A stretch of DNA of 64,000 nucleotides from the NCBI GenBank assembly GCA_017460745.1, contig JAFUAL010000014.1, positions 924 to 64,923 on the forward strand. Reading direction: 5' to 3'. Below, in pieces: positions 7,065-53,303 of this stretch (the stretch's first letter is position 1; every line of letters starts with the position of its first letter). A model generated the notes under the pieces. The model was not told where the DNA came from, made no database searches, and saw only the letters and a list, made by a program, of their open reading frames with translations. The position numbers and the translations under genes were made by a program. The DNA is from Bacilli bacterium (lineage in GTDB: Bacteria > Bacillota_I > Bacilli_A > RF39 > UBA660).

Positions 7065-7068
<4 letters not shown>

Positions 7069-9365: not shown

Positions 9366-9373
9366 GAGTTGTT

Positions 9374-11539: not shown

Positions 11540-11562
11540 ATTAGCGATAAAAGGGGGATAAT

Positions 11563-25758: not shown

Positions 25759-26433
25759 ATGAAATATGTAAAGTATTTAATGCTATGTTTTTTATTTTGT
25801 ATTACTTTAAATGTTAAAGCACTTGACAGTTGTACAACAGATGAAATGAATAGACTTAAAGAATTAGCAGGTAATGTTGAATTTAAATATAACTATGAAA
25901 TAAGTAATGAATATATTGCAGAGAATGCCGCTGAAGAAAATTTTGTAGAAGGGGTATTTAAAATACAAGTTTTAAATCATAATGAGGATTTAAGATATGT
26001 TCTTCAATATGATGGTTCCGAATTTGAAATAAATGGTAATGATTTAAGTAGTTTTAGTTTTGATGAAGGAGAAACAATTACTTTTAAAATATATTCATAT
26101 ACTACTAATTTATGTACTCACAATATGTTAAAAACTTATACTATAAAATTACCTTATTATAATCAATATTATCATTATAATAAAGATAAATGTGAAAGTA
26201 ATCAAGAATTTGAATATTGCAAAGAATATTTAGATAAATATACTGGTAAATCAATTTCAGAGATTGACGAAGAATTTGAAAAAAATAAAAATGATGGTTT
26301 AAATATTGTTTCTGAATTACCTAAAAATAATATTGTAATAATTATAATTTCCCTAATAGTAGTTTTAGGATTAGGAATAGGTGGAGTTGTTGTTTATAGC
26401 CAATACAAGAAAAGAAAAAAAGATGATTTATAG
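25759..26433 (+). CDS. Secreted Cys-rich protein with C-terminal TM anchor and basic tail (paralog A1)
   Basis: Signal peptide ...TLNVKA/LDSC, four conserved Cys (CTHNML...CESNQEFEYCKEY), a C-terminal TM IIISLIVVLGLGIGGVVVY, then KKRKKDDL. It is a paralog of 28082-28765. Confidence 0.55.
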   Translation: MKYVKYLMLCFLFCITLNVKALDSCTTDEMNRLKELAGNVEFKYNYEISNEYIAENAAEENFVEGVFKIQVLNHNEDLRYVLQYDGSEFEINGNDLSSFSFDEGETITFKIYSYTTNLCTHNMLKTYTIKLPYYNQYYHYNKDKCESNQEFEYCKEYLDKYTGKSISEIDEEFEKNKNDGLNIVSELPKNNIVIIIISLIVVLGLGIGGVVVYSQYKKRKKDDL

Positions 26434-26448
26434 TATAGTGGTGATAAT

Positions 26449-28062: not shown

Positions 28063-28081
28063 GAAGAAAGGATAAGATTAT

Positions 28082-28765
28082 ATGAGAAAAATTAAATATA
28101 TGTTAGGATTATGTTTATTCTTTACAGTTTTAAATGTTAAGGCAATTGATGCATGTACTAGTGAAGAAATGTCAAGACTTAAGGAGTTAGCTAATAATGT
28201 TGAAATTAAGTATGACTATGAATTATTCGATGATGAATACGAAGATGATAATGGAAACACTGTTAATACAGAAAATAAGTTTGCTCAATATAAATTTACA
28301 GTTTTGAATACTAATGATGATTTAAGAATAGCATATTCTATCGGTAATGAAAGCGAGAAAAAAACAACTAAGGAAGCAATTGAAAACGAAATCTTTAATG
28401 AAGGAGATCATCTAAGATTTGCAATTTATGCAAGAACAAAAAATTTGTGTATTGATAAAATATTAAGGACAGTAGATATAAAACTTTCTTATTATAATAA
28501 TTGGTATTCTGAAAACGAAGAAAAGTGTGAAGAATACAAAGAATTTAAATATTGTAAACAATTTCTTGAAAAAAATGTTGATAAAGATACTATAGAAAAA
28601 GAATTTAAGAAATATTCTCAAGATGTGAATAAAGAAAAACGTAGTAAAATATGGAATAATTTTGTTAATAATTATTTATTTAAAATATTAATTGGTATTG
28701 CTGTTGTTGGTGGAGGAGTAGCAGTCTTTATCATTAGAAGAAGAAAAATGTTGGAAGGATTATAG
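28082..28765 (+). CDS. Secreted Cys-rich protein with C-terminal TM anchor (paralog A2)
   Basis: Same architecture as A1: signal peptide ...LNVKA/IDAC, conserved Cys pattern, C-terminal TM, then RRRKMLEGL. Confidence 0.55.
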   Translation: MRKIKYMLGLCLFFTVLNVKAIDACTSEEMSRLKELANNVEIKYDYELFDDEYEDDNGNTVNTENKFAQYKFTVLNTNDDLRIAYSIGNESEKKTTKEAIENEIFNEGDHLRFAIYARTKNLCIDKILRTVDIKLSYYNNWYSENEEKCEEYKEFKYCKQFLEKNVDKDTIEKEFKKYSQDVNKEKRSKIWNNFVNNYLFKILIGIAVVGGGVAVFIIRRRKMLEGL

Positions 28766-28769
28766 TAAT

Positions 28770-31181
28770 ATGAAAAAGTTTATAAAAGGTTTTCTTGTAG
28801 TATCTTTGTTATTTGGTATATTTTTAGTATCTTTTAACACTTTTGCAGATGATGCTTCTGCGGACAGAGGCGATTTAAGGTGTACACCTGAGTATAAGAA
28901 TGTTAAATGTTGGGAACATGATGATAATAGTGATGGTAAAGTAGATAGAGTTACAATTCCAGTTACTGTAACATCTAGTAGCGGAAACACTTATACACTT
29001 ACAAAGGTTGCAGAAAAAACTCTTGATGAGGGAACTGTCAAAATTCATTTTGAAGTAACAGGTGATGGTTTTACCACGATTACTCACACAACCGAAACAC
29101 CATATGCTGATATTGCGATTTTGCTTGATTATTCAGGTTCGTTTTCAAGCCATGCATCTAGTGCAAAAGCGGCTATTAAGGCTTTTTCAAAAGAATTTTT
29201 TAGTAAAAATACAGATGGTGATTTACGTTATCAAATTGCTTATGCTCAGTTTAATGAAGCATTAGGTGACGATAATAAAACAAAAAAAGTTTCAAATTAT
29301 ATATCCAGTATGGATAATTATACTTTTAGTTGGCCTGGATTATCTGAAGATAAACATTCAGTAGTTAATGATGGTTTATATGTAGTATGGAGAGATATTC
29401 TTGGGGAAGCTACTAGTGGCAAAAGAAGTGATGTACCATCATACCTTATCGTGGTAAGTGATGGTGGTTTTAGAAATTATGGTTCTTATGCAAAGACTCA
29501 TATGACAAAATATAAAAAAGATTGTGGTTCAAGTGGAAGTCTGGGTGCTGAAAAAGGGCATGATGAAATGGAAGATGAAGCTGATATAATAAAAAATACA
29601 TATAATACTACTATAATGGGAATTATTTATAATAATGATAAAACATGTTATGATCATGCGGATAGGTCTGAAGATATGAATGCTATATTGAGCTCTCCGA
29701 ATAATTTAGTTAAAATGTGGGATAACCTTGGAGATACTTCGGAATTGGAATGCGATGAAATCGAAGACAAAGCATGGTGTTTAGCGTTTAATATGATTTA
29801 TAAACAAATTACAACTGGAGAAACTACTACTTATGATCAAATAGTTGCAAGTGGTATGGATTATTATGGCGAACATTTTAGAACAGGTGGAACTGTAAAA
29901 AAATCATTTAATATAAGAAAAGAGCAAGGTGCATCACAACCTTATAAATCAAAATCATTTAAGGTTAGTATAGATGAGACAGTACCAGCAGGATGGTATC
30001 CAACAAATGATGGTTTTGAAGGTAAAATTAGAATTGGAACTGAAGAGTTAACAATTCCTCGTGATAGTAACGTTAATCCTGAAATATATTGGAAACCGAA
30101 TCAACCAGAAAAAGAATGTGGCGTTGGAATAAATTATCCAGGTTCAAAATTTGTAAATACGGTAGAAGATATTTATAGTATTGTTTGTACTGAAGAGTTT
30201 GAAGGTCCACATAAAATAAATGATGGAGTGACACCAATAGAGGGAATGTATGGTTTTTCATCAACTCTTGATTTTAAAACAAATGCAAAATGTACATATC
30301 GATTCGACCAAGCAGAATATAATTCTATAAAAGCAGATTTGGAGGCACAAATAGCAAAGGCAGAAGCAGAATTGACAGAAGAAGAAAAAGAATTTGAAAT
30401 AGCATCTCTTCAACGTCAATTGCAAGATCTAGAAGATAGAAGAACAGCTTATTATAATAAGGTTGATACTACTTATAACAATACTAGTTTTTTACATACA
30501 TATTCAAGTAGTTTTTATGATATAGAAGCATCTTTAGAAGTAACAAGTACAAAATCAACTAAGACGGTTCTATTTGAAGAAGAGGAAAGAAGTGGTGGAG
30601 AAGTTGATTGTAGTGGTTCAAAAGAAAATAGAACATGTACAATGAATGCAGAGAAAAAAATGTATTTACCTATTAGTTGTTTAGATCCAAGTACAGGAAA
30701 TCAGTATGATACGTTACACGATAATTGTATATCGGGCGGTAGAAAATTTTATCCTCCTAAAAATGAAGGCTCTGGACATGCTACGCTGTTTGCAAAACAT
30801 GTAACATACCTTTCATTAGATGTTGAAGCAGGTGGTTCAAAATGTGATTATGGTATGGAAGAGATAAGAGATATATTTTATCGTCAAATAGATGTTGCAG
30901 ATCCCTTTGTTCAAAATACGGCAGGCTCAAGAGCAATAGGAAGAAACTTCCAAAATAATGATTTGAAATATGATTTTGTTAGAATAATAGATGCAAATAT
31001 CTGGGATGGAGAGTATGAATATTTATTCCAGTTAGGAAAAACAGATATTTTAGATGTCAAAAATGAAACTATTGGTGATAGCGCTAAAGTAAAAAGTTAT
31101 TTAGGTGAAGGATGTAGCTTAGACTCAAATAGCAACAAAATTATTTGTCCATTGGTAAGAGAACTACGAAATATGGGATAA
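28770..31181 (+). CDS. Secreted large vWA-domain protein (paralog B2), putative adhesin
   Basis: Signal peptide, GDLRCTPEYKNVKC, vWA with MIDAS ILLDYSGSFSS, the conserved EIYWKPNQPEKECGVGINYPGS block, and a coiled-coil segment. 803 aa. Confidence 0.6.
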   Translation: MKKFIKGFLVVSLLFGIFLVSFNTFADDASADRGDLRCTPEYKNVKCWEHDDNSDGKVDRVTIPVTVTSSSGNTYTLTKVAEKTLDEGTVKIHFEVTGDGFTTITHTTETPYADIAILLDYSGSFSSHASSAKAAIKAFSKEFFSKNTDGDLRYQIAYAQFNEALGDDNKTKKVSNYISSMDNYTFSWPGLSEDKHSVVNDGLYVVWRDILGEATSGKRSDVPSYLIVVSDGGFRNYGSYAKTHMTKYKKDCGSSGSLGAEKGHDEMEDEADIIKNTYNTTIMGIIYNNDKTCYDHADRSEDMNAILSSPNNLVKMWDNLGDTSELECDEIEDKAWCLAFNMIYKQITTGETTTYDQIVASGMDYYGEHFRTGGTVKKSFNIRKEQGASQPYKSKSFKVSIDETVPAGWYPTNDGFEGKIRIGTEELTIPRDSNVNPEIYWKPNQPEKECGVGINYPGSKFVNTVEDIYSIVCTEEFEGPHKINDGVTPIEGMYGFSSTLDFKTNAKCTYRFDQAEYNSIKADLEAQIAKAEAELTEEEKEFEIASLQRQLQDLEDRRTAYYNKVDTTYNNTSFLHTYSSSFYDIEASLEVTSTKSTKTVLFEEEERSGGEVDCSGSKENRTCTMNAEKKMYLPISCLDPSTGNQYDTLHDNCISGGRKFYPPKNEGSGHATLFAKHVTYLSLDVEAGGSKCDYGMEEIRDIFYRQIDVADPFVQNTAGSRAIGRNFQNNDLKYDFVRIIDANIWDGEYEYLFQLGKTDILDVKNETIGDSAKVKSYLGEGCSLDSNSNKIICPLVRELRNMG

Positions 31182-31251
31182 GTAATAAAAGATAATAAAA
31201 AATTCTTGATTATCAAAAAGAATTATTGTATAATCAAATAAGATAGGAGGT

Positions 31252-31839
31252 ATGTTTACGAAAGTAGCAATGTGGGCTGTCTTCATATTCCTACTTGGTT
31301 TATTTGGTGTAGTATTAATTAATACATTTGGTGTTATTACTACAACTAATCAACAAGATTACACTTTAGTTAAAAATGCAGTTGAAGCTGCAATGAATGA
31401 TTCAATTGATTGGGCATCATATAGAACAGGATTTTATTTGTGTACAGATAAAACTGGTGATGGAGAAGGTATGAGAACATTCACTAGTAAAGATGAATAT
31501 AAAGTTATTCTTAATAGTGATTTGATAACACATGAAGGTGATGCAATAACAGACAAGAATGCTCCTGATTCAAAATGTGCTTTATTGATGGCAGAATACA
31601 AATTAAATAAAGATGTATTTGTTGAAAGTTTTATAAGAAGATTTGCCAATAATGTAAATAACAATAAAAGTTATCAAGTAACAATTCAAGAAGTAATTGA
31701 GTATCCTCCTAAGGTAAGTGTAAGGATTGATACTTTAAATACTTATAATTCTGTTGAATCACGAACAGAGGAATTTAATTTAAATCCAGATTATAGCATC
31801 AGAAATCAAATTGATGCAATATTAGAAGAAAAGAGTTAG
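31252..31839 (+). CDS. Membrane-anchored protein, possibly a TadE/pseudopilin-like pilus-assembly component
   Basis: N-terminal TM MWAVFIFLLGLFGVVLI followed by NAVEAAMNDS, which is weakly TadE-like. Located directly upstream of cpaB. Confidence 0.3.
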   Translation: MFTKVAMWAVFIFLLGLFGVVLINTFGVITTTNQQDYTLVKNAVEAAMNDSIDWASYRTGFYLCTDKTGDGEGMRTFTSKDEYKVILNSDLITHEGDAITDKNAPDSKCALLMAEYKLNKDVFVESFIRRFANNVNNNKSYQVTIQEVIEYPPKVSVRIDTLNTYNSVESRTEEFNLNPDYSIRNQIDAILEEKS

Positions 31840-31850
31840 AGAGGGAGAAT

Positions 31851-32612
31851 ATGAAAAAATTAAAACAAATTTTATCAAACAAAAATACTGTAACACTTGT
31901 AGGCGCAGTATTAATAGTTCTTGTATTATATGTTTTTTATAACATAAAAGTTAATCAAGCAACAACACCTATAAGGGTTCCTTATGCAATTCAACCAATT
32001 GCAGCAAGGACAAAAGTTACAAAGGATATGATTGGATATCTTGAAATTACACAATCTGCCTTAAAGGGAGATATCTATACACATGAAAATCAAATAATTA
32101 ATAATGTATTATATACTAGATATGAAATTCCAACAGGTAGTTTATTTTATGTAGATGCATTATGCGAAGAAAAGGATTTACCAGATTCTTGGATGCTTCA
32201 AATGGATGACGGAATGGTAGCATATAATTTTGATGTTACAATGAAATCAACATACGGTAATTCAATTTATCAAGGAGATAAGATAGATTTATATTTTAGA
32301 GGAAGAGATGATACTGGATTAGTTCTAGTTGGAAAATTCTTAGAAAATGTAAAGGTTTTAATTGTAAAAGATTCATCTGGACGTAATGTTTTTGAAAATA
32401 CTACTGAAGTTGGTACTCCTAGTCAGATGATTTTAGAAGTAACTGAAGAACACCATTATTTATTAAGAGCAGCTGAGAAAATTAATAATGTTGAAATTAT
32501 TTTAGTTCCAAGTGGAACGACACTAGAAAATAATACAAATGAAAAGGTACAAACATTAACTAGTGAAGAAGTTAAACAATATATAGAAACCAAATCAAAA
32601 ACAATGCAATAG
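31851..32612 (+). CDS. cpaB: Flp pilus assembly protein CpaB/RcpC-like
   Basis: N-terminal TM, then an SAF-like region (PIRVPYAIQPIAARTKVTKDMIGYLEI). Size and position upstream of the Tad ATPase are typical. Confidence 0.6.
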   Translation: MKKLKQILSNKNTVTLVGAVLIVLVLYVFYNIKVNQATTPIRVPYAIQPIAARTKVTKDMIGYLEITQSALKGDIYTHENQIINNVLYTRYEIPTGSLFYVDALCEEKDLPDSWMLQMDDGMVAYNFDVTMKSTYGNSIYQGDKIDLYFRGRDDTGLVLVGKFLENVKVLIVKDSSGRNVFENTTEVGTPSQMILEVTEEHHYLLRAAEKINNVEIILVPSGTTLENNTNEKVQTLTSEEVKQYIETKSKTMQ

Positions 32613-32619
32613 GTGAGTT

Positions 32620-34110
32620 ATGAATCAAGGTATAAACGTATATGATTTAACACCTAAAAGTAACGAAAACAAAACCAATACTGAGATAAACGATAGTTTA
32701 TTTTCCAGTATTGATTTTGGGCCTTTAAAGGCATATCTAGATGATGATAACATTACCGATATTTCTTATAGTAATAATGGACAAGTTTGGCTTAAATCAC
32801 TTGATCGTGGAGTTTACCGTGTAGATAATCCTGGTATTAATAATGATTTAATGGAAAAAATTGCATTCCAATGTGCAAATATCATGGGGAAAACCTTTAA
32901 TATGGCAAGTCCACTTCTTGATAGTGAATCAAGTGAACTTCGTATGAATTTTATTCATGATTCAATTGCTAGAAATGGAATTGCAGCGGTTTTCAGAAAA
33001 ACACCAGCTAAGATAAGGCTTGAAAAAGAAAAAATTGTTGAACAAAAATATATTACGACAGGCATTCATGATTTTTTAATTGAATGTGTTAAAGGACATT
33101 GTAACATAATTGTAAGTGGTGAAACTGGTTCAGGAAAAACTGAGCTTGTTAAGTACCTTGCAAGTCATACTGCAACGAATGAAAAAATAATTACAATTGA
33201 AGATACTTTGGAACTTCACTTAGATAAAATATTTCCGGAACGTGATATAGTTTCAATGAAGACTAATAATATAGCATCATACTCTGACGTTTTAGTTGGT
33301 TGTATGAGACAGAATCCAAAATGGATATTACTTTCCGAGGTTCGTAGCGCTGAAGCAGTTACGGCAGTTCGTAACTCTATTTCATCAGGTCATAATATTT
33401 TGTCAACAATCCATGCTGATAAAGCGTCAAGTATTCCTTATCGTTTATATAGTTTGTTGGAATCTAATATTGATGTTGAACAATTCATGACAACAATTTA
33501 TAGATATATTCAATTAGGTATACATGTTCGTGCTAGATATGATAAGCAAACTGGTAAGTTTATGAGAGAAGTATGCGAGGTGTGTGAGTTCTTTGTTAAT
33601 GAAGAAAATCAACCAGAGTATAATATTATATATAGAAAAAATGTTGATGGAACGGAAGTAGTAAATGGACCTTCAACACATTTAATAGAATATTTAGAAA
33701 GTCAAGGGGTTGACTTAACTAAAAAGAGTTTTGATAATATTAAAATTCCATCACCATTTGAAGAACCTTTAATCAATGATGATATGGAAGAAGATTTAGA
33801 ACAAACCTCAAAGCAAGAAGAAACAAAAGACAATGGTCATCAAGATGCAAGTCAACAAAATATTAATCAGTTGAATAATAGTAAGCAAGTTGTAAGTCAG
33901 CAAATGCAAGCAAGACCGAATAATGTAAGGCCTACTCAAAATGTTCAGCCAATGCAAAATAGACAACCAACAATGCAATCTAGCATAAATAACTTAAATA
34001 TAGTACCAAATGGAGTAAGACCTAATAATTTTAATAGTAATCAAAACATTCAATCTCCAAACAATATGAGAGCAAATGCTCAACCATTTATTGAAGATGA
34101 GATGTTATAG
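32620..34110 (+). CDS. cpaF: Tad/Flp pilus assembly ATPase CpaF/TadA with an unusual Q/N/P-rich C-terminal extension
   Basis: Walker A GETGSGKTE, Walker B/Asp box ILLSEVRSAEA, His box STIHADKA. The last ~100 aa are low-complexity and Q/N/P-rich (QNVQPMQNRQPTMQ...). Confidence 0.85.
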   Translation: MNQGINVYDLTPKSNENKTNTEINDSLFSSIDFGPLKAYLDDDNITDISYSNNGQVWLKSLDRGVYRVDNPGINNDLMEKIAFQCANIMGKTFNMASPLLDSESSELRMNFIHDSIARNGIAAVFRKTPAKIRLEKEKIVEQKYITTGIHDFLIECVKGHCNIIVSGETGSGKTELVKYLASHTATNEKIITIEDTLELHLDKIFPERDIVSMKTNNIASYSDVLVGCMRQNPKWILLSEVRSAEAVTAVRNSISSGHNILSTIHADKASSIPYRLYSLLESNIDVEQFMTTIYRYIQLGIHVRARYDKQTGKFMREVCEVCEFFVNEENQPEYNIIYRKNVDGTEVVNGPSTHLIEYLESQGVDLTKKSFDNIKIPSPFEEPLINDDMEEDLEQTSKQEETKDNGHQDASQQNINQLNNSKQVVSQQMQARPNNVRPTQNVQPMQNRQPTMQSSINNLNIVPNGVRPNNFNSNQNIQSPNNMRANAQPFIEDEML

Positions 34111-34124
34111 GAAGGTGTGATGAT

Positions 34125-35021
34125 ATGGAATTTATAATAATATTATTAATTGTTATATTTGTTGTTTTATATCGAAAGAGTAATGGTGAATCAGTTTATA
34201 AATTTGTTTCAACAAGTATCGGAGATATATATGACAAATATGCACCATATTCGTTTAAAAATATAAGAGAAAGATGTAAGGAGATGGGACTTGAGTATAC
34301 ACCAAGACAATATACAGTTCAAGTAATTGTTTTTGCATCTCTTGCCTTCATTATCTCATATTTGTATTTTTACAATATAGTTATATCTTTCTTGTATGTA
34401 GTGGCAGTTGTTTCAATAATACCATATTTAGCATATCTTAGATGTAAAAGATTGTATAGTGAATTTATATTTGAACAAGTTCAAGTATATGTAACTAACA
34501 CGATTATGGAATTTCAGACTACTCAATCATTCGTAAAAGCTCTTGAAGGAGTTTATAATTCAGGAGTTTTGGAAGAACCTTTAAAAACAGATATTAAAGT
34601 TATGATTGATTTGGCATATCATAATGGAGATGTTATGGAATCAATTACATATATGAATAGTAAATATGATTTTTATATGACTAGAAATATGCACCAATTA
34701 TTTTTACAAGTTACCCGAGAAGGTGCACATGATACCATTCAAGTACTTGATAATATGTTACTTGATGTTGACCAATTAGTTGAAGGAGTTTATCAAGATA
34801 GAATGAATCGACAAGCCTTCCATAAATCATTTATTACATATGGTTTGATGTTATATTTGATGGTAATGTTAATTCAATGGTTAATTGGAAAAGAAACATA
34901 TATAAGTTTGGTTAATAGCAATATAATAATGCAAATTGGACTTCATATAGTAATACTTTTTAATAGTTATTTTCTTCTATCAGGAGAAAAATATTATAAC
35001 GAGAATGTAGGTGCTGAGTAA
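34125..35021 (+). CDS. tadB: TadB-like (GspF/T2SSF-family) pilus assembly membrane protein
   Basis: 298 aa with an N-terminal TM, a cytoplasmic domain and C-terminal TMs. Position directly after cpaF. Confidence 0.55.
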   Translation: MEFIIILLIVIFVVLYRKSNGESVYKFVSTSIGDIYDKYAPYSFKNIRERCKEMGLEYTPRQYTVQVIVFASLAFIISYLYFYNIVISFLYVVAVVSIIPYLAYLRCKRLYSEFIFEQVQVYVTNTIMEFQTTQSFVKALEGVYNSGVLEEPLKTDIKVMIDLAYHNGDVMESITYMNSKYDFYMTRNMHQLFLQVTREGAHDTIQVLDNMLLDVDQLVEGVYQDRMNRQAFHKSFITYGLMLYLMVMLIQWLIGKETYISLVNSNIIMQIGLHIVILFNSYFLLSGEKYYNENVGAE

Positions 35022-35809
35022 TGGAATTTGCAATTATAATTATAATAGTAGTTTTTGTTCTTAGTTATAGTGGTTCACTTAGTACAAAACAAATATATGA
35101 AGATAATAAAACATTATTTGGATTACTAAAAGAAAAAGATTATGATTTCTTAGTTAAGGCTAAGTATGGAAATGAAGTAAATCCCGATGACTATTTTGAA
35201 AAAAGAATACAACAATTTATTTTAGAATTAGTTGTTGTTGCCGCTGTTTTAATGTTTAATTTTACATGGATTAATTTAATAATCGGTTTAATTATTTTAG
35301 TTGTTTTATATAGAAGTCAATATTCATCATTAAAAAGTTTTTATAAGAAAAATTTAACAGCAATTGATCAAAATTTACCATATTATTTGAAGAGTATTGA
35401 AATACTTGCTCAACACTATACTATACCAGTTGCAATATCAAGATCAATTGAAACAGCTCCTGATATGTTTAAAGAAGGACTTACAGAAATGATTAAGCAG
35501 ATTGATGCAGGTGATTCATCAATTAATCCATATCTTGAGTTTGCAAGAAAGTATCCAGTTGGTGATTCTCTTCGTATGATGAGACTTTTATATCGTTTAA
35601 GTATTGGTGCACAGGAGAATAAGCAAGAGCAATTATCAGTTTTTTCTAAGAGCGTATCAAGTCTTCAAAATAAAGCAAGAGAGATGAAATATGCTTCAAG
35701 ACTTAATACTATGGAAAAAAAGACAATGACAATGTTGATAGTAACTGGTGGTGGATCAATGTTGGTTTTATTCTTTGCAATGGTAATGATGATGGCAAAT
35801 TGGGGGTAG
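35021..35809 (+). CDS. tadC: TadC-like (GspF/T2SSF-family) pilus assembly membrane protein
   Basis: 262 aa with similar topology, start-stop coupled (ATGA) to tadB. Confidence 0.55.
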   Translation: MEFAIIIIIVVFVLSYSGSLSTKQIYEDNKTLFGLLKEKDYDFLVKAKYGNEVNPDDYFEKRIQQFILELVVVAAVLMFNFTWINLIIGLIILVVLYRSQYSSLKSFYKKNLTAIDQNLPYYLKSIEILAQHYTIPVAISRSIETAPDMFKEGLTEMIKQIDAGDSSINPYLEFARKYPVGDSLRMMRLLYRLSIGAQENKQEQLSVFSKSVSSLQNKAREMKYASRLNTMEKKTMTMLIVTGGGSMLVLFFAMVMMMANWG

Positions 35810-35901
35810 TAAATAAATGTAAATTTTAATAAAAGTTATTGAAAAAAAAATAAAACTATGGTACATTATAAATGTACAATTGGAAAGGAGAAATATAATT
35901 T

Positions 35902-36111
35902 ATGAAAGAAGCAAGTGGAGAGTTATCAATGACATTAATTGTTATAATTGCTGCTGGTGTTATTGTTATGATTTTTGCTGCATTTTGGCCTCAAATTCAA
36001 GATTTTATTAATCAAAAATGGACTCAGTTTGATGGTCAAGCAGGTACACCAATGATTGTTACACATGGAAGTATTGAAATTCCTGGTTATAGTGTCGTTT
36101 TAGGAAAATAG
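35902..36111 (+). CDS. Flp-family prepilin-like protein (divergent)
   Basis: MKEASGELSMTLIVIIAAGVIVMIF resembles Flp ..DESGATAIEYGLIAALIAV... It is 69 aa with an RBS GGAGAAA. The Glu normally at +5 is replaced by Thr. Confidence 0.5.
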   Translation: MKEASGELSMTLIVIIAAGVIVMIFAAFWPQIQDFINQKWTQFDGQAGTPMIVTHGSIEIPGYSVVLGK

Positions 36112-36129
36112 TTTATAGGAGAGTGAAGT

Positions 36130-36579
36130 ATGAGGGAAGCCGTTGGTAGTTCTATTTTGTTCTATATTATTTTGATGTTTATTGGTATTTTTATTGTTTT
36201 TATTGCTATTATTATGAATTATGCTGCTGCATATCGTACTAATAATTATGTGGTTAATATGATAGAGCAAAGCGAAGGACAAGATAATTTTAATTCTGAT
36301 TTAGTTTCGTATTTACAGAGTAAAAATTATAATAATGGATTGATTGTAACTTGTTCTCATAATGAAAATGGTTCAGTTTTTCATATTAAAACGTATGTTA
36401 CGTTTTACATTCCTATAATTGAAGCTGGTTTTCCTTTAGAAATCAATAACGATACTAAAACAATATATACTAAATATAATAATAATTTTTGTAATAGTAG
36501 TGGTGGCTACTATGATATGAATTATCCATCAGTTGGATGTTGGGCAGGTTCTGGCACAACTGGAATTAGCTGTTATTAA
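36130..36579 (+). CDS. TadE-like pseudopilin
   Basis: MREAVGSSILFYIILMFIGIFIVFIAII followed by NYAAAYRTNNYVV matches the TadE-like N-terminal pattern. 149 aa. Confidence 0.5.
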   Translation: MREAVGSSILFYIILMFIGIFIVFIAIIMNYAAAYRTNNYVVNMIEQSEGQDNFNSDLVSYLQSKNYNNGLIVTCSHNENGSVFHIKTYVTFYIPIIEAGFPLEINNDTKTIYTKYNNNFCNSSGGYYDMNYPSVGCWAGSGTTGISCY

Positions 36580-36611
36580 CAGCTTTTTTTCTTTAATGTG
36601 GAGGTGAAAAT

Positions 36612-37622
36612 ATGAATATAATAGTTACAAATAAATATAAGGATTTAATTTATAGTGCTAATATAGAAATATTAAAAGAATTAAATGGAGTATTCAAGGT
36701 TAGTCAAATCGTTAATAGTTTTAATTCTATATTCTATAAAAAAATAATAATAGATGCGACTGCTTTAGAGAATTTTCCAAAAGAAAATGTGTTAAAAGAA
36801 CTTGCTGCAGCATTTGAAAAGGATAAATTGATTTTACTTTTGCCACCTGATAATCCACCACCAAAAAAGTTTTTATCTTTTTTAGTTAGTATTAATATTT
36901 ATAATTTTACTGACAATGCAAGTGGATTATTAGAATTAGTTCATAAGAGTAATAAGATAAATGATGTAAAAAATTATATAGAAGAGAGAGAAGAAAAAAT
37001 TGCTGAGACTAAAAATGAAGAAAGTACAATTCATGATGAAAATGATTTACTACCTCAACAAGTAATTTTAGGATTTAATGGTGTAACTGGTAATTCTTAT
37101 GTAACTGAAATAATTTATAGTATAAAGAAGGAATTAGAAGAAAGATATCAGAAGAAAGTATTAGCAATAGAGGTTGAGAAAAGAGATTTTGTTTTTTATA
37201 ATTCTTCTAGTATGATGTCTATAGGTAAAGATAAAGTAAATATCTTTTTACAAAATAATTTAAATGACTACGATTTTATTTTAGTAGATTTAAGTAATTA
37301 TAATAATACTACAATTTGTAATGATGTTATTTATTTAGTTAATCCGTCATTATATGAAGTAAATAAAATAATGATGAAAGATAGAACAGTATTTATGAAG
37401 TTGAAAGGTAAAAAAGTGGTTTTTTCTAATAGTTTACTTACAAGTAATGATGTAAATCAATTTGCAAGAGAAGCCGGAATAAGTGTTTATTATAACCTAA
37501 CTCCTATTAATGATAGAGGAACTAATGATAATATTAGCAAATTACTTACTAAAATGGGAGTTCTTGATAACGAATCAAGTGATAAATCAACTAAAAAGGG
37601 ATTATTTGATATTTTCAAATAG
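36612..37622 (+). CDS. TadZ/CpaE-like protein with degenerate ParA/MinD motifs
   Basis: An N-terminal receiver-like region, then ILGFNGVTGNSYVT in the position of a Walker A motif (the conserved Lys is absent), then YDFILVDL, which is Walker-B-like. Confidence 0.35.
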   Translation: MNIIVTNKYKDLIYSANIEILKELNGVFKVSQIVNSFNSIFYKKIIIDATALENFPKENVLKELAAAFEKDKLILLLPPDNPPPKKFLSFLVSINIYNFTDNASGLLELVHKSNKINDVKNYIEEREEKIAETKNEESTIHDENDLLPQQVILGFNGVTGNSYVTEIIYSIKKELEERYQKKVLAIEVEKRDFVFYNSSSMMSIGKDKVNIFLQNNLNDYDFILVDLSNYNNTTICNDVIYLVNPSLYEVNKIMMKDRTVFMKLKGKKVVFSNSLLTSNDVNQFAREAGISVYYNLTPINDRGTNDNISKLLTKMGVLDNESSDKSTKKGLFDIFK

Positions 37623-41826: not shown

Positions 41827-42093
41827 ATGAAAAATGAGAATGAATATATTATAAATGATGAAGAGTTTGATTTAATATGTAAATATGTAAAAATCAGATA
41901 TGAATCAAAAGTAAGCCAAAGAGAGTTAGCTAAAAAAATAGGAATAGCTCAATCTACTATTGCTAGAATGGAGAAGAATATACATTCTATGTCAATTGGA
42001 AATTTTACTAAATTATTATCAGCACTTGGTTACAAATTAGAAATTATAGAGAAGGAGGATCAACATGGAAAACAAAATAATAGCATTAACTAA
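41827..42093 (+). CDS. XRE-family HTH protein, copy 1
   Basis: HTH SQRELAKKIGIAQSTIARMEKN. It is 99% identical over 76 aa to copy 2 (43093-43341). Confidence 0.6.
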   Translation: MKNENEYIINDEEFDLICKYVKIRYESKVSQRELAKKIGIAQSTIARMEKNIHSMSIGNFTKLLSALGYKLEIIEKEDQHGKQNNSIN

Positions 42094-42895
42094 ATCATTT
42101 GAAGATGAAAAAATAAGAACAGTATGGAATAAGGAAGAAGAAAAATATTATATTAGTATAGTTGATATGATTAAAGTATTAACAGAAAGCACTGAACCTA
42201 GGAAATATTGGAATTGGTTAAAGAATAAATTACTAAAAGAAGAAAATTTTGAAACGTCTAGTATTACTAGACAGTTGAAATTAAAAGCAACAGATGGAAA
42301 AATGAGATTAACGGATGTTGTAGATATTGAAGGAATGTTTAGAGTTATTGAATCTATTCCATCAAAAAAAGCTGAACCTATTAAGTTATGGCTTGCTCAC
42401 CTTGGAAAAGAAAGAATAGATGAAGAATATGATCCTGAGATAACAATTAATAGAGCACTTGAAGCATATCGAAGAAAAGGTTACTCTGATGATTGGATTA
42501 ATCAAAGATTGAAAGCAATAGATGCCAGAAAAGAATTTACTGATGAATTAAAAAATAATGGTATTGAAAGTAGTAAGGATTTTGCTATACTAACAGATTT
42601 ATTAACTAAAACATGGAGTGGATATTCAACAAAAGAGTATAAGTCATATAAAGGATTAACTAAAGAAAACTTAAGGGATAATATGACTAATATGGAATTA
42701 GTATTAAATATGCTTGCAGAGGCAACCTCTACAGAAATAGCAAAATCAAATAATGAGAAAAGCAAAGAAAATGCAAGAAGTTCAGTAATTGAAGGTGGCA
42801 CTATTGCTAAAAACACAAGAGAACAAATAGAGCGAAAAACAGGAAAGAAAATAGTAACAAATATTAACAATAAAAATATAAAGCAAATAAAATAA
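42065..42895 (+). CDS. RhuM-family (Bro-N/virulence-protein RhuM-like) protein, copy 1
   Basis: The N-terminus IRTVWNKEEEKYYISIVDMIKVLTES matches the RhuM family signature (ETVWLTQAQMAELF...). Confidence 0.55.
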   Translation: MENKIIALTKSFEDEKIRTVWNKEEEKYYISIVDMIKVLTESTEPRKYWNWLKNKLLKEENFETSSITRQLKLKATDGKMRLTDVVDIEGMFRVIESIPSKKAEPIKLWLAHLGKERIDEEYDPEITINRALEAYRRKGYSDDWINQRLKAIDARKEFTDELKNNGIESSKDFAILTDLLTKTWSGYSTKEYKSYKGLTKENLRDNMTNMELVLNMLAEATSTEIAKSNNEKSKENARSSVIEGGTIAKNTREQIERKTGKKIVTNINNKNIKQIK

Positions 42896-42976
42896 AGTAT
42901 TGTAAGAGTTATTTTAACATAAATTTATATTGAAGACACTTTATGGTCTTACTGCAAGGCAGATAAGATAGTAGTA

Positions 42977-43092
42977 CAAGCTGCTATTAATAAAAAATAG
43001 ATAATTATGATATAAAGGTTAAATAAAAATATTTATTTTTTTATTGACAATATAATGCGTATTTGCTGTCATGACTAATGAGGTAATAGTTA
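42977..43092 (+). repeat. Second copy of a ~350-bp direct repeat (41707-42060 / 42977-43325) that includes the last ~30 nt of ppdK, the promoter region, and the HTH gene
   Basis: caagctgctattaataaaaaa(aa)tagataatt...ttgacaat[g/a]taatgc[a/g]tatttgct[a/g]tcat... aligns with the ppdK 3' end and downstream region at >90% identity. Confidence 0.7.
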
Positions 43093-43341
43093 ATGAAAAA
43101 TAAGAATGAATATATTATAAATGATGAAGAGTTTGATTTAATATGTAAATATGTAAAAATCAGATATGAATCAAAAGTAAGCCAAAGAGAGTTAGCTAAA
43201 AAAATAGGAATAGCCCAATCTACTATTGCTAGAATGGAGAAGAATATACATTCTATGTCAATTGGGAATTTTACTAAATTATTATCGGCACTTGGTTACA
43301 AATTAGAAATTATAGAGAAGGAGGCCAAAAATGAAAAATAA
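43093..43341 (+). CDS. XRE-family HTH protein, copy 2
   Basis: Identical to copy 1 except E4K and a different C-terminal tail. Confidence 0.6.
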   Translation: MKNKNEYIINDEEFDLICKYVKIRYESKVSQRELAKKIGIAQSTIARMEKNIHSMSIGNFTKLLSALGYKLEIIEKEAKNEK

Positions 43342-44188
43342 CAAATTAGAAACTATTTCAAATTTATTTGAAGGTCAGGAAATAAGAAGTATATGGGATA
43401 AAGAGAAAGAAGAATATTATTTTAGTGTAGTAGATGTTATAAGTGCATTAACTGATGCAACTATACCTAAAAGATATTGGAGCGATTTAAAACGAGAGCT
43501 AATAAATGAAGGTAGTCAGTTGTACGAAAAAATCGTACAACTGAAGTTAAAGTCCTCAAAGGATGGTAAAAATTATTTAACTGATACACTAGATACTGAA
43601 GGTATATTTAGACTTATTGAATCAGTTCCTAGTCCTAAGGCAGAACCATTTAAATTATGGTTAGCCAAACTTGGTAGACAAAAGGTTGATGAAATATTTG
43701 ATCCTTCTAAAGGAATTGATGAGATGATAGATTTTTATTTAAAAAAAGGATACACATTAGAATGGATTGAAGCTAGAATTAAAGCTATTATTGATCGAAA
43801 AAGGCTTACTAAAGTATGGAATGATGGTGGTGTTAAAGAAGGAAAAGAATATGCAATGCTTACTAATGCTATTTATAAAGAATGGTCTGGTATGACTGCA
43901 TCAGAATATAAAGCATTTAAAGGTATAAGAAAAGAAAATTTAAGGGATAATATGTCTAGAATTGAAGTATTATTAACTGACTTAGGTGAATTAGCAGCTC
44001 ATGATATTGCTGAAGAGGAGCACCCCCAAGGTTTTAGAGAAAATGTAAAAGCAGCTAAGCGTGGTGGAAAGGTTGCAAAAGATGCTAGAAATTCATATGA
44101 AAAAGCAACAAAAAAGTCAGCAATTTCAAAAAATAATTCTTTAAAGTATAAATATATAGATGAAAACAATAAAATAGAAAAAAGGTAA
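43331..44188 (+). CDS. RhuM-family protein, copy 2 (diverged, ~50% identical to copy 1)
   Basis: QEIRSIWDKEKEEYYFSVVDVISALTDA and the conserved KENLRDNM block are shared with copy 1. Confidence 0.55.
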   Translation: MKNNKLETISNLFEGQEIRSIWDKEKEEYYFSVVDVISALTDATIPKRYWSDLKRELINEGSQLYEKIVQLKLKSSKDGKNYLTDTLDTEGIFRLIESVPSPKAEPFKLWLAKLGRQKVDEIFDPSKGIDEMIDFYLKKGYTLEWIEARIKAIIDRKRLTKVWNDGGVKEGKEYAMLTNAIYKEWSGMTASEYKAFKGIRKENLRDNMSRIEVLLTDLGELAAHDIAEEEHPQGFRENVKAAKRGGKVAKDARNSYEKATKKSAISKNNSLKYKYIDENNKIEKR

Positions 44189-50087: not shown

Positions 50088-50653
50088 AAGTAATAAGTGG
50101 AACTTTAAAGGGAAGAAAGATACTAGGATATAATATAGATGGTACTCGTCCTACAATGGATAGAGTAAAAGAAAGTATTTTTGCTCTTATACAAGATAAT
50201 GTTAAAGGAAGTATGGTACTTGATTTATTTTCTGGAAGTGGTAATTATGGAATAGAAGCAATTAGTAACTATGCAAATCTTGTATATTTTAATGATTATA
50301 ATAAAGAGTGTTGTAAAGTTATAAAGAAAAATCTTGAAACGTTTGATGTTTTAGATAAAGGTATAGTTTTAAATTTAGATTATATAAAATGTTTAGATTT
50401 ATTAAAAAAGCAAAATAAAAAATTTGATTTAGTTTTTTTGGACCCACCATATAAACTTGACGTAATAGATAAAATCATGAGCATTTTAGAAAAAAATAAA
50501 TTGTTAAATAATAATAGTTATGTTATAGTAGAGTTGGTAAATGATAATCTAAAAGAACAATATAATAGTTTAGTCAGAATAAAAAAACGAGTATTTGGTG
50601 AAAAAATTATATATGTATATAAGAATATGGGTGAAAGAGATGAATTTGAATAA
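50084..50653 (+). CDS. rsmD: 16S rRNA (guanine966-N2)-methyltransferase
   Basis: MKVISGTLKGRKI...DLFSGSGNYGIEA...LDPPY motifs. Confidence 0.85.
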   Translation: MKVISGTLKGRKILGYNIDGTRPTMDRVKESIFALIQDNVKGSMVLDLFSGSGNYGIEAISNYANLVYFNDYNKECCKVIKKNLETFDVLDKGIVLNLDYIKCLDLLKKQNKKFDLVFLDPPYKLDVIDKIMSILEKNKLLNNNSYVIVELVNDNLKEQYNSLVRIKKRVFGEKIIYVYKNMGERDEFE

Positions 50654-50822
50654 AAAAGGGTTTGCAATTTCTACTATGTTATATGGTCTTGTATTTGTTA
50701 CAATTGCTATATTTTATTTAATAATTGCAATGGTTAGTGGAAGACATGAAACTAATGAAGAATATACAGAAAGTGTTAGAAGTGAATTAAATGGATTAGA
50801 AATTGTTGTAAGTTGGAGGTAG
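50640..50822 (+). CDS. Type IV prepilin-like mini-protein
   Basis: MNLNKKGF/AISTMLYGLVFVTIAIFYLII has a KKGF-hydrophobic prepilin-like N-terminus with Thr (not Glu) at +5. RBS GGGTGAAAGAG. 61 aa. It overlaps the rsmD end. Confidence 0.4.
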   Translation: MNLNKKGFAISTMLYGLVFVTIAIFYLIIAMVSGRHETNEEYTESVRSELNGLEIVVSWR

Positions 50823-50825
50823 TAT

Positions 50826-51803
50826 ATGTGTGAAAATGTATTGTTTTTAAGAATATTAAGTTTTTTTTATACTGCAATGAGTTTTTTAAGATTTACTATT
50901 CCAATTATTTTAATAATAAAATTAACTTTTGATATATATAAAGGGATAATAAATACAAATGATAATTCATTTAAAGAGAAAGTAAGTCGTAGAATAATTG
51001 CATGTGTTATTATCTTTTTAGTACCAACAATTATAAATGTTTTTTTAGGATTAATTGAAACAGTAACGGGGATGGCATTTAATTATTCAGAGTGTACTGC
51101 TAATATAAAAAATATAGATTATTATGTTGAGAAAAGAGAACTTGAGGAAAAACTTTTATATGAAAAAGAAAGTAGTGAAGCATATCAAAAGTATCAAAAT
51201 GCTATTAATGATTTAACCAAAAAGATACAGGAAAGTTCAAGTAGTACAGGAAGCGGAGATGCAACAGCTATTAGAATAGGTGAAAAATATAATGTTACCG
51301 ATAAACAATTAGAAAATATTGCAAAAGTATGCCAAAGAGAACAAGGACGACCAGAGGGAGCTGCTGCAGAGGCTGAGTTAATGATAAATAAATATGTTTT
51401 AAGTGGATATAGTGGTTCTTTCTATGACTATTTATTTAATTCTAGTAATGGAAATTGGTGGCATCCAATTAAGGCTGGTAACTATGGTTCAACTAAATTA
51501 AAACCTGAAATAAAAGAAGCAGTTAGAAAAGTAGTAGTTGAGGGTCAAAGAAAGTATCCAGCTTACATAAATGAACATGATTGTATTAGTTGTGGAGATG
51601 TTTTATATATAAAAACAGATGGCCAAAGTGCAAATAAAAATAACAGAAGTGATTTTGTTCAAGATAAAACATTTGTTTATACAAAATATAAACAAAATTC
51701 TAAAGTTAAGTATTGGATATTCTATGCTTTTCCAGATGAAAAAAGTGATCCATTTGGTTATACTTATGATGCAAAAGATAAGTTAGCCGCGATCAGTAAG
51801 TAG
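50826..51803 (+). CDS. Two-TM D-x-Y-K family N-terminal domain fused to a ~230-aa C-terminal domain of unknown function (tandem paralog 1)
   Basis: The N-terminus FTIPIILIIKLTFDIYKGIINT...RRIIACVIIFLVPTIINVFLGL is homologous to the three small proteins at 37.6-39.0 kb. A SSSTGSGD linker follows, then a C-terminal domain with conserved Cys/His (KVCQREQG...NEHDCISCG). Confidence 0.55.
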   Translation: MCENVLFLRILSFFYTAMSFLRFTIPIILIIKLTFDIYKGIINTNDNSFKEKVSRRIIACVIIFLVPTIINVFLGLIETVTGMAFNYSECTANIKNIDYYVEKRELEEKLLYEKESSEAYQKYQNAINDLTKKIQESSSSTGSGDATAIRIGEKYNVTDKQLENIAKVCQREQGRPEGAAAEAELMINKYVLSGYSGSFYDYLFNSSNGNWWHPIKAGNYGSTKLKPEIKEAVRKVVVEGQRKYPAYINEHDCISCGDVLYIKTDGQSANKNNRSDFVQDKTFVYTKYKQNSKVKYWIFYAFPDEKSDPFGYTYDAKDKLAAISK

Positions 51804-51809
51804 GTAGTT

Positions 51810-52778
51810 ATGTGTGAGAATGTATTATTTTTAAGAATATTAAGTTTTTTTAATACTGCAATGAGTTTTCTAAGATTTGCTATTCCAATTATTTTAATAA
51901 TAAAATTAACTTTAGATATATATAAGGGAATAATAAATACAAATGATAATTCATTTAAAGAGAAAGTAAGTCGTAGAATAATTGCATGTGTTATTATCTT
52001 TTTAGTACCAACAATTATAAATGTTTTTTTAGGATTAATTGAAACAGCAACAGGAATGTCATTTAATTATTCAGAGTGTATTGCTAATATAAAAAATATA
52101 GAATATTATGTAGAAAAAAGAGAACTTGAAGAAAAACTTTTATATGAAAAAGAAAGTAGTGAAGCATATCAAAAGTATCAAAATGCTATTAATGATTTAA
52201 CCAAAAAGATACAGGAAAGTTCAAGTAGTACAGGAAGTGGAGATGCAACAGCTATTAGAATAGGTGAAAAATATAACGTTACCGATAAACAATTAGAAAA
52301 TATTGCTAAAGTATGTCAAAGAGAACAAGGACGACCAGAGGGAGCAGCCGCAGAGGCCGAGTTAATGATAAATAAATATGTTTTAAGTGGATATAGTGGC
52401 TCTCTTTATGACTATTTATTTAATTCTAGTAATGGTCGTTGGTGGCATCCAATTAAGGCTGGTAACTATGGCTCAACTAATTTAAAACCGGAGATAAAAG
52501 AAGCAGTTAGAAAAGTAGTAGTTGAAGGTCAAAGAAAATATCCGGCTTATATAAATGAACATGATTATTTTGGTGATATATCTAAAATTGTTACAAATGG
52601 TCAAAGTACAAGTAGTAGTTCTAGTATAAAAACACGTACAAATTATGTAAAAGATAACACCGTTATTTATAATAAAATGGGTTCAGTTTATACTTTTTAT
52701 ATGTTTCCAGATGATAAAAGTGATCCATTTGGTTATACTGTTAAGGCTAAAGAAAAAGTAGATGCAATGAATAAATAG
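51810..52778 (+). CDS. Tandem paralog 2 of the same fusion protein, with divergent C-terminal ~75 aa
   Basis: Near-identical to paralog 1 over ~245 aa, then diverges (NEHDYFGDISKIVTNGQSTSSSSS...). Confidence 0.55.
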   Translation: MCENVLFLRILSFFNTAMSFLRFAIPIILIIKLTLDIYKGIINTNDNSFKEKVSRRIIACVIIFLVPTIINVFLGLIETATGMSFNYSECIANIKNIEYYVEKRELEEKLLYEKESSEAYQKYQNAINDLTKKIQESSSSTGSGDATAIRIGEKYNVTDKQLENIAKVCQREQGRPEGAAAEAELMINKYVLSGYSGSLYDYLFNSSNGRWWHPIKAGNYGSTNLKPEIKEAVRKVVVEGQRKYPAYINEHDYFGDISKIVTNGQSTSSSSSIKTRTNYVKDNTVIYNKMGSVYTFYMFPDDKSDPFGYTVKAKEKVDAMNK

Positions 52779-52787: not shown

Positions 52788-53303
52788 ATGAAAAAAAATA
52801 TAACATATTTAGTAGTTTTAGTAATTGTTGTAGGTGCCTTGTTTGGACTTAATTATTTTTTAAGACCTAGTATGAAAGAACAGATAAAAACATATTTATT
52901 GGATAATGGTTTTAATCAAAGTGAATATGAAGATGTACTGGTTAAACAAGAATCAACTACTAAAAAAACATCATTTAGTTTAGGGGATTATACTTATATG
53001 TTAGAAGTGGATGAAACTAAAAGTGGAATGAAGACATCTCTTAATGCAACTTATGATTATAAAACGGAAGCTGTAGTTTATTCTTATCGAGTAAATTATA
53101 GTAATAATATTAATATTTGGTTTAAAGGTGAATATAAAGATGATTCTTTTACGTGTAATAAAGAGTTTTCATCAGCAACAATATCTTCTAGTGAGCAAGA
53201 AAATATTTGCAATTTAGCCAGTGTTAATGTTAAAATATTTGAACTTGAGGCCAAAACATTATTTACTAAATATAAGTATGTTGATTATATAAAAAATAGA
53301 TAA
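52788..53303 (+). CDS. Secreted/membrane-anchored hypothetical protein
   Basis: 171 aa with a signal-anchor LVVLVIVVGALFGL and RBS AGGAGGA. Confidence 0.4.
   Translation: MKKNITYLVVLVIVVGALFGLNYFLRPSMKEQIKTYLLDNGFNQSEYEDVLVKQESTTKKTSFSLGDYTYMLEVDETKSGMKTSLNATYDYKTEAVVYSYRVNYSNNINIWFKGEYKDDSFTCNKEFSSATISSSEQENICNLASVNVKIFELEAKTLFTKYKYVDYIKNR

Follow-up and report, generated by a model that had tools for sequence, protein, structure and literature searches.

Tandem genes for putative membrane-tethered peptidoglycan hydrolases with a SleB-like fold and a VirB2-like anchor in an uncultured Bacilli bacterium

What is encoded by two adjacent genes whose products are nearly the same over most of their length and then abruptly part company? 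Such a pair lies at positions 50826-52778 of the 64,000-nucleotide (nt) stretch analysed here (the window), which is taken from contig JAFUAL010000014.1 (positions 924 to 64,923, forward strand) of assembly GCA_017460745.1. The genes, designated A and B, specify proteins P0001 and P0003, annotated at NCBI as hypothetical proteins of a 'Bacilli bacterium' metagenome-assembled genome (MAG). An original prediction, made from the letters alone, described them as tandem duplicates fusing a domain with two transmembrane (TM) helices to a second domain of ~230 amino acids (aa), suggested that this domain might be a peptidase or peptidoglycan hydrolase, and likened the locus to those of polymorphic toxins or adhesins. 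The duplication and the fusion were borne out, the second domain, putatively extracytoplasmic, comprising ~180 aa. We propose that A and B are probably membrane-tethered peptidoglycan hydrolases, combining a SleB-like fold with a VirB2-like anchor and accompanied by a conserved partner. The window has a G+C content of ~25%, and all genes around A and B are on the plus strand.

The gene pair and its C-terminal domain

The pair is organised as follows:

50826-51803, plus strand: gene A (325 aa), an open reading frame (ORF) for a VirB2-like two-TM hairpin, a probably helical stalk and a SleB-fold domain with tip type a (EHD-CISCGD...KVKYWIFY)
50826-51125, plus strand: A aa 1-100, two-TM hairpin domain (TM1 ~aa 17-38, basic loop aa 39-56, TM2 ~aa 57-77)
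51126-51257, plus strand: A aa 101-144, charged and likely helical linker or stalk, ending in the Ser/Gly hinge SSSSTGSG
51258-51581, plus strand: A aa 145-252, core of the putative peptidoglycan-hydrolase domain, made up of alpha-helices, from the structural model and invariant columns
51582-51800, plus strand: A aa 253-325, beta-strand subdomain forming tip type a, with the SDPFGYT motif and a C-terminal helix at its end, from model secondary structure
51810-52778, plus strand: gene B (322 aa), an ORF with the architecture of A and tip type b (EHD-YFGDISKIV...SVYTFY)

Overall, A and B are 83% identical (273/329, BLASTP). The sequence motifs quoted in the original prediction are all present, namely DIYK (aa 36-39), SSSTGSGD within SSSSTGSGD (aa 137-145), KVCQREQG (aa 167-174) and NEHD (aa 249-252). 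The linker differs in length among homologues, and P0010 and P0014 carry insertions.

The C-terminal domain (C-domain) was modelled with AlphaFold2 (AF2) using 29 homologues (pLDDT 94, pTM 0.90). The model consists of five helices, a beta-subdomain and a terminal helix, the beta-subdomain being what appears in the sequence as the variable tip (aa 253-325). Foldseek returned the SleB catalytic domains 4FET and 4F55 as the sole coherent matches in the Protein Data Bank (PDB), with prob 0.9 and a TM-score of 0.52-0.56 on target length. Among the 50 best matches to the viral models of BFVD, at least 25 were phage proteins bearing the name of SleB-type cell-wall hydrolases, the strongest with E 7.9e-4 and prob 1.0. 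In fold, SleB/CwlJ (Hydrolase_2) is the nearest to the C-domain and has practically no competitor. The similarity does not extend to sequence or profile level at significance, and the C-domain differs from SleB in being ~60 residues larger and in its extra beta-subdomain and own invariant motifs (E182, EHD and DPFGY). Scans of A and B gave no significant Pfam, NCBIfam or PHROGs model for this domain, and the annotations of the source records leave it unnamed.

The original prediction had pointed to conserved Cys and His residues, and to the CHAP, NlpC/P60, transglutaminase-like and peptidase C39 families as candidates. None of these was matched in Pfam or Foldseek. The His of NEHD (H251) varies little or not at all in any of the alignments, but C169 of KVCQ gives way to Ala or Gly elsewhere in the family (LCGVAKAEQG, AVLGKAEQG). 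A Cys/His peptidase thus finds no support, while the hydrolase half of the proposal is backed by the SleB-like fold, by the domain company of the family and by phage endolysins.

The residues which are constant throughout all four family alignments are E172 and D252; E182, N188, W211, G240, R242, H251, P309 and G311 are constant in the majority of these and reach 90% conservation or more in the remainder. E172 stands at the C-terminal end of model helix 15-29. One glutamate is described as essential for the activity of SleB (PMC12331253), and we take it to be the first Glu of GESRGE because only that one is conserved in the phage homologues. In a 29-column hhalign segment, which is not significant, E172 pairs with this Glu of GE(S/A)RGE; the helix-1 pattern E-x-G...G-x-A-x-A...N of the C-domain is there aligned with GEsRGE..Gq.AVA..LNR of SleB. 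The C-domain, as a remote structural relative of SleB/CwlJ, would most likely cut the glycan strand, with E172 at the end of helix 1 as general acid and D252 of NEHD as candidate second carboxylate. The fold and the Glu/Asp pair point to a putative glycosidase, of either the muramidase or the lytic transglycosylase kind.

An exhaustive profile search placed the C-domain in 759 protein clusters at 50% identity, 275 of them below 1e-30. Roughly 47 of the best 150 relatives share the two-TM fusion architecture, and the full-length fusions all came from MAGs of uncultured gut and rumen bacteria, under the labels Bacilli, Erysipelotrichaceae, Tenericutes, Mollicutes or Mycoplasmatota. Among 60 larger multidomain members, the C-domain is accompanied by Peptidase_M23 (13), CHAP (13), NlpC/P60 (9) and Phage_lysozyme2 (8), other partners being dockerin, PG_binding_1, SpoIID, ELLD, SH3_3 and LysM. 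Some of the proteins in which it is found are giant and unite several hydrolases, with domains of the M23, CHAP, NlpC/P60 and lysozyme kinds. The protein P0050 (532 aa) carries an anchorless C-domain that comes after a signal peptide and a glutamine-amidotransferase/peptidase C26-type (gamma-glutamyl hydrolase-like) domain, and could be a two-activity wall enzyme.

Phages possess the domain as well. In the 57 IMG/VR contigs with a C-domain, it is as a rule N-terminal within proteins of 160-450 aa, and the two-TM fusion was absent from the viral contigs examined. On viral contig L032 the order is tail-fibre-like genes, holin (phrog_297), a 245-aa C-domain protein and integrase, which is the position of an endolysin. 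This holin-adjacent lysis cassette is true of the L032 relative and not of A and B; that A and B are themselves prophage endolysins was rejected, as their flanks are housekeeping genes and the two-TM fusion occurs in no viral contig. By tblastn, the C-domain of A had no match in INPHARED phages or PLSDB plasmids, and the matches of P0160 were confined to its ELLD and PG-binding parts. Ten IMG/VR contigs of 120-290 kb (L027, L038, L042, L044, L053-L056, L059 and L065) hold the C-domain inside giant ORFs of >2300 aa, and these 'viral' contigs may be megaphages or misclassified conjugative elements.

Association with PG_binding_1 is common to SleB/CwlJ and the C-domain family, with the difference that in the phage-lysin relatives the order is reversed, the catalytic domain coming first and PG_binding_1 second. 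These relatives also bear upon a different explanation, in which the C-domain is a non-catalytic module that binds cell wall or glycan and A and B are anchored wall-binding or adhesin proteins. This would accord with the absence of a sequence match to any characterised enzyme family, with the many proteins in which the C-domain accompanies bona fide catalytic domains, and with a structural similarity to SleB that is moderate only. However, there are phage and bacterial proteins of ~250 aa which consist of the C-domain and the binding domain PG_binding_1 and nothing else, one relative occupies the holin-endolysin slot, and the invariant acidic residues and His are positioned as in lysozyme-like enzymes. 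We regard a purely binding role as highly improbable. Because of the domain company of its relatives and the phage genes in endolysin position, where it is the sole candidate catalytic domain, and in keeping with its fold, the C-domain is very probably a (putative) peptidoglycan hydrolase.

Partial gene conversion between old tandem paralogues

The contrast between the nearly identical trunk and the divergent tip of A and B is resolved into these segments:

50826-51581, plus strand: A copy of the gene-conversion tract (95% nt identity; sharp ends at the ATG and just past the NEHD codons)
51810-52565, plus strand: B copy of the tract, partner of the former; B aa 1-252, a converted copy of the A trunk, from sequence identity and dS
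52566-52775, plus strand: B aa 253-322, a retained ancestral copy-2 tip, from sequence identity to the tips of other genomes

Over aa 1-252 the two proteins differ at 10 positions (96% aa and 95.0% nt identity), so that the shared trunk of the original prediction is real but its figure of ~90% over the first ~245 aa was too low. The sharp divergence that it saw in the last ~75 aa was confirmed: the final ~73/70 residues (A aa 253-325) show ~40% aa and 64.6% nt identity, the motif PDEKSDPFGYT in A and PDDKSDPFGYT in B being kept at aa 303-313. In sliding windows the drop is abrupt, from 41-45/45 nt between the ATG and the NEHD codons to 20-25/45 thereafter.

Does the tip evolve faster, as the notion of C-terminal acceleration would have it? 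Between A and B, the trunk has a dS of 0.21 and an ω of 0.09 and the tip a dS of 0.80 and an ω of 0.53, values at which dS nears saturation and ω is rough. The four-fold or so difference in dS itself points to segments of different age, as expected from partial gene conversion, and not to accelerated protein evolution. The orthologues argue in the same direction, with a tip ω of 0.08-0.34; in the comparison of A with copy 1 of contig L159, tip (ω 0.08) and core (ω 0.09) are equally constrained.

The tip of A is 75-88% identical to those of P0002-P0011, and the tip of B is 65-77% identical to those of P0014, P0018, P0019, P0021, P0024 and P0029, and 62% to that of P0032. The core of B is far from copy-2 cores (dN 0.63-0.65), whereas its tip is near copy-2 tips (dN 0.21-0.23). 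Across the family we recognised two core types (I and II) and three recurrent tip types (a, b and c), and all combinations occur. Contigs L158 and L159 both have a copy 1 with core I and tip a and a copy 2 with core II and tip b. Within either contig the N-terminal domains (N-domains) of the two copies are 87-91% identical and the cores 34-35%, while orthologous N-domains are only 70-72% identical between genomes; these tandem pairs are homogenised only over ~aa 1-100/125.

The trunk/tip pattern is thus an evolutionary by-product of gene conversion between old tandem paralogues. The simplest account is an old pair with recurrent 5' conversion whose end points differ by genome. The ancestral pair comprised a core I/tip a copy followed by a core II/tip b copy, and in this genome conversion has overwritten the first 756 nt of B with those of A, the tract reaching the NEHD codons.

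Two observations may be added. The tip types differ mainly in a Cys-bearing insertion directly after the invariant EHD (A aa 253-258, window 51582-51600), which holds CxxC in tip a, four Cys in a knuckle-like CxxC...C......C in tip c and no Cys in tip b; it may be a metal or disulfide site dispensable for the fold. Elsewhere in the window, at 41827-44188, is a second tandem module in which the genes with a helix-turn-helix (88 and 82 aa) are 94% identical and the ~280-aa genes that follow them 43%. This may be a further case of partial homogenisation or a toxin-antitoxin or phage-repressor-like pair.

The mosaic history bears directly upon the polymorphic toxin or adhesin pattern, according to which the cell would export A and B as effectors that degrade walls, conflict would have diversified their C-terminal tips, and the small downstream gene would encode an extracytoplasmic immunity protein. 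Such loci, including those of contact-dependent effectors, are superficially alike, since there too the N-terminal parts hardly differ, the C-terminal ends diverge and a small gene follows, and A and B are indeed a duplicated enzyme with differing tips. Unlike these loci, the pair has no trafficking, secretion or other delivery domain, the protein being held by two TM helices, and no modular toxin cassette, co-varying immunity gene or variable genomic context. The tip is not a separate domain but the beta-subdomain of one compact, confidently modelled fold, its types are few, old, conserved across genomes and under purifying selection, and the trunk/tip contrast is visible in dS too. On balance we consider toxins or adhesins quite improbable here, and the neighbouring gene has a further bearing on them.

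The genomic slot and the downstream gene p171

A and B are flanked by two small genes, both of which had been noted in the original prediction and proved to be conserved in relatives:

50640-50822, plus strand: mini-gene (60 aa), an ORF with a basic leader (MNLNKKG) followed by Phe and a hydrophobic helix; type-IV-prepilin-like, without Glu at +5
52788-53303, plus strand: p171 (171 aa), anchored by an N-terminal TM segment and with an alpha+beta domain on the extracytoplasmic side

The whole group lies within a co-directional, tightly spaced run of housekeeping genes, ylbD-ylbE-ylbF-rsmD ... rnj-rmuC. The same slot is found in contigs L001, L158 and L159, in the order ylbD-ylbE-ylbF-rsmD, (prepilin-like gene), one or two hydrolase genes, p171 homologue and rnj-rmuC; the prepilin-like gene is present in L001 and L159, and none was called in L158. 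Contig L084, which starts inside the hydrolase region, shows the hydrolase-p171-rnj-rmuC portion. A scan for promoters and terminators yielded no more sites than shuffled sequence and no predicted plus-strand terminator.

The mini-gene had no significant Pfam, NCBIfam or PHROGs match. Its product is 64% identical to a 58-aa ORF at the equivalent position in L159, and it matches no more than the N-terminal stretch of a 531-aa prepilin-like DUF6273 protein which fills the slot in L001 (56% over 48 aa). DUF6273 is named in papers on phage receptor-binding proteins and on targets of diversity-generating retroelements.

The p171 product was likewise without significant match in Pfam, NCBIfam or PHROGs. 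Its AF2 model (pLDDT 90.7) shows a helix, ~7 antiparallel strands and long C-terminal helices, and C123 and C141 are invariant. Foldseek gave weak, incoherent matches only, the best being to a p32-like protein (E 0.04, TM-score 0.29), and the helix/seven-strand sheet/helix topology faintly recalls the p32/MAM33 proteins. Sub-threshold matches of two homologues to Phage_nozzle were judged spurious.

In at least 14 loci the next gene after the hydrolase gene is a p171 homologue, and p171 is a conserved partner of the hydrolase genes. The constancy of this pairing, a wall-degrading enzyme followed by a small membrane-anchored extracytoplasmic protein, could be claimed for an effector and its immunity protein, as could the duplication of the entire pair in one genome (L104). 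Against this stands the fact that a single p171 serves two different tips (tip a of A and tip b of B), unlike cognate immunity genes. The detected homologues are 53-96% identical, including the one beside the tip-c gene of L085 (55%), and the slot between rsmD and rnj is a syntenic part of the core genome in at least four genomes. The downstream gene does not, then, behave as an immunity gene, one of the two options (immunity or partner gene) of the original prediction. As to L104, a second hydrolase-like ORF and a p171-like ORF lie directly upstream of the main pair (6845-9525), which suggests a tandem duplication of the hydrolase-p171 pair; the first copy was matched over only 128 aa.

Another precedent for the arrangement is sleB, which also has a gene for a membrane-anchored partner directly downstream, in the operon sleB-ypeB(-ylaJ) (PMC12331253). 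By analogy with SleB-YpeB, p171 might possibly act as a stabiliser or inhibitor of the hydrolases. In contrast to that system, p171 shows no relationship with YpeB and lacks a PepSY match, and no link to spores is evident for A and B.

The two-TM hairpin, a Tad-like locus and the proposed function

The N-domain leads to two further regions of the window:

25759-37622, plus strand: Tad-like (type IV filament) locus, from Pfam matches and ORFs; the gene order is repeated in contigs L155-L157
37660-38993, plus strand: three tandem stand-alone two-TM paralogues (109, 159 and 136 aa), BLASTP E 1e-8 to 5e-6 versus A and B

Hydropathy peaks of the A hairpin fall at ~aa 13-38 and 52-83, and the loop between the helices (KGIINTNDNSFKEKVSRR) is short and basic, with 5 K/R versus 2 D/E. 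In an alignment of 32 N-domains C2, P26, L29, K39, F64, P67 and C90 are nearly invariant. Sixteen of the 32 match PF18895 (T4SS_pilin) at E<=1, the best at 4.3e-6, and four match DUF4134 in Pfam; the N-domain of A itself is without a T4SS_pilin match, and the hairpin copies in the window reach no curated family threshold in Pfam or NCBIfam. Matches to the pilin-like families of Mycoplasma integrative and conjugative elements (ICEs) in NCBIfam were weak and far below cut-off. The VirB2-like architecture of two TM helices, a short positive loop and ~100 aa is present, as it is in the VirB2/TrbC pilins (PF18895, DUF4134 and the Mycoplasma ICE proteins Mbov_0395/MMCAP2_0566). Head-to-tail cyclisation is known for some VirB2/TrbC pilins; the hairpin family has a conserved Cys pair instead. 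A lipoprotein reading of A and B was rejected, Cys2 having neither a preceding signal peptide nor a lipobox.

A profile of the 32 two-TM domains retrieved 135 proteins, mostly stand-alone and of ~105 aa. The anchor and stalk are fused elsewhere to an NlpC/P60-like domain (P0036-P0049, 378 aa, on >70 contigs) and to an alpha/beta hydrolase (P0034, 381 aa). To our knowledge, fusion of a VirB2-like hairpin to enzymes has not been described. In L152 a 169-aa ORF with a weak T4SS_pilin match lies directly upstream of the anchor-fusion gene, and in L091, L092, L094 and L096 (~11000-12600) an extra two-TM-only gene is located ~2 kb downstream of the hydrolase-p171 pair.

The three stand-alone paralogues of the window sit directly after the Tad-like pilus locus, and two-TM genes of ~105 aa occupy the 3' end of the matching locus in three other contigs (L155-L157). 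This locus codes for two VWA proteins, DUF5411, RcpC/CpaB, a T2SSE-family ATPase, two TadB/C-sized membrane proteins, a small Flp-like ORF (69 aa), pseudopilin-like ORFs and a 336-aa protein; neither VirB4 nor VirD4 was seen at the Tad-like loci of the window and L155-L157. Within it, two paralogous secreted, C-terminally anchored proteins of ~225 aa (25759-26433 and 28082-28765; 40% identical) each precede a large VWA protein (26449-28062 and 28770-31181, respectively), so that part of the pilus locus seems to have been duplicated in place. PF18895 has been used as a VirB2-like profile, and VirB2 arrays are known in tandem from Patescibacteria (10.1101/2025.01.22.634366). The stand-alone hairpin genes described here are likewise in tandem, in groups of two to three, with the difference that the neighbouring machine is Tad-like (RcpC, T2SSE ATPase). 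We know of no description of a VirB2-like array on a Tad-type, rather than a VirB4-type, machine.

From these features we propose the following arrangement. The hairpin would insert with both ends outside and the basic loop in the cytoplasm; with the loop inside the cell, Cys2 and Cys90 would both face outward, and a disulfide between them could staple the hairpin. The ~45-residue charged stalk, probably helical, and the Ser/Gly hinge would place the C-domain in the wall. As a module common to the VirB2-like small proteins at the Tad-like locus, the hairpin is probably no passive anchor but the part by which enzymes that modify the wall join a common assembly in the membrane. A parallel is offered by the VirB1-like enzymes of monoderm secretion and conjugation systems (PrgK, TcpG, TraG-pIP501, CwlT and CD419), which are membrane-anchored and muralytic and are believed to make local openings in the wall for an apparatus that spans the envelope (10.1101/2025.01.22.634366). 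These employ SLT, GH73, LytM or CHAP domains with a single TM anchor or lipobox and are encoded inside an operon for a type IV secretion system, whereas A and B use a new candidate catalytic domain with a VirB2-like hairpin and lie 12 kb from a locus which is Tad-like, not VirB4-type.

It may be asked if A and B are simply housekeeping autolysins, active in growth or cell separation, with the hairpin as a mere membrane anchor unconnected to the pilus machine. Their place in a tightly spaced housekeeping run with no predicted plus-strand terminator would suit this, as would the housekeeping-gene neighbours of both the NlpC/P60-like and the alpha/beta-hydrolase fusions (L152-L154). Yet C2, P26, K39, F64, P67 and C90 are common to the anchor and the stand-alone proteins of the pilus locus, a constraint beyond the need of a passive anchor; the stand-alone copies are fixed in the Tad-like operon of four genomes; and a prepilin-like gene lies directly upstream of A, here and in related genomes. 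Ordinary autolysins are thus an unlikely explanation. A bolder scheme takes the hairpin as a VirB2-like assembly subunit of an undescribed Tad-like envelope machine in uncultured Bacilli that possess a wall. Through fusion of this subunit to a SleB-fold hydrolase, an NlpC/P60 enzyme and an esterase, the machine would carry enzymes of its own under regulation by p171, and the C-domain would be a new and widespread class of Glu/Asp (E172/D252) hydrolase and endolysin. We offer this scheme as tentative and, taken as a whole, rather unlikely.

How firmly, then, can A and B be called peptidoglycan hydrolases of SleB-like fold, held by a VirB2-like hairpin and joined by a conserved partner? Several points count against it. 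Pfam gives A and B nothing at E<=1, and Hydrolase_2 (PF07486) is likewise unmatched in 60 other members. Profile searches of PDB sequences with two alignments brought up neither a relative at significance nor anything akin to cell-wall enzymes, and 4F55 and 4FET were not retrieved. The hhalign comparison with a 15-sequence SleB alignment (homologues from viral contigs), which covers 29 columns, gave P = 0.088 and is not significant. The C-domain's own invariant motifs are absent from SleB, and its chemistry could differ, for example in being metal-dependent. A and B lie among housekeeping genes, at the distance from the Tad-like locus given above, and their connection with the machine is made through the common N-domain alone. 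The architecture, the likeness of fold, the spread of the family, the synteny and the mosaic history can be taken as shown, whereas topology, disulfide, the role of p171, enzymatic activity and the Tad-like link are matters that we infer. With these points set beside the fold, the company and the phage relatives of the C-domain, membrane-tethered hydrolases remain the probable identity of A and B.

The C-domain constitutes a large unnamed family of 759 clusters with no relative by sequence in Pfam, NCBIfam or PDB, and it appears to be the putative enzymatically active part of phage endolysins and of giant multi-hydrolase proteins of Firmicutes from gut and rumen. Once named and assayed, it would help in the annotation of lysins and provide an extra catalytic module for engineered ones. 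The pair also carries a caution, in that a conserved trunk and divergent tip in tandem genes can come from partial gene conversion between old paralogues, and diversifying selection should not be inferred from such pairs before dS and orthologues have been checked. Finally, the reuse of a VirB2-like hairpin as the anchor of three wall enzymes and as tandem genes at a Tad-like locus hints at an uncharacterised connection of wall remodelling with a pilus-type machine in uncultured Bacilli of reduced genome. If the hairpin is indeed an assembly subunit, the machine would supply its own wall-opening activities, regulated by p171.

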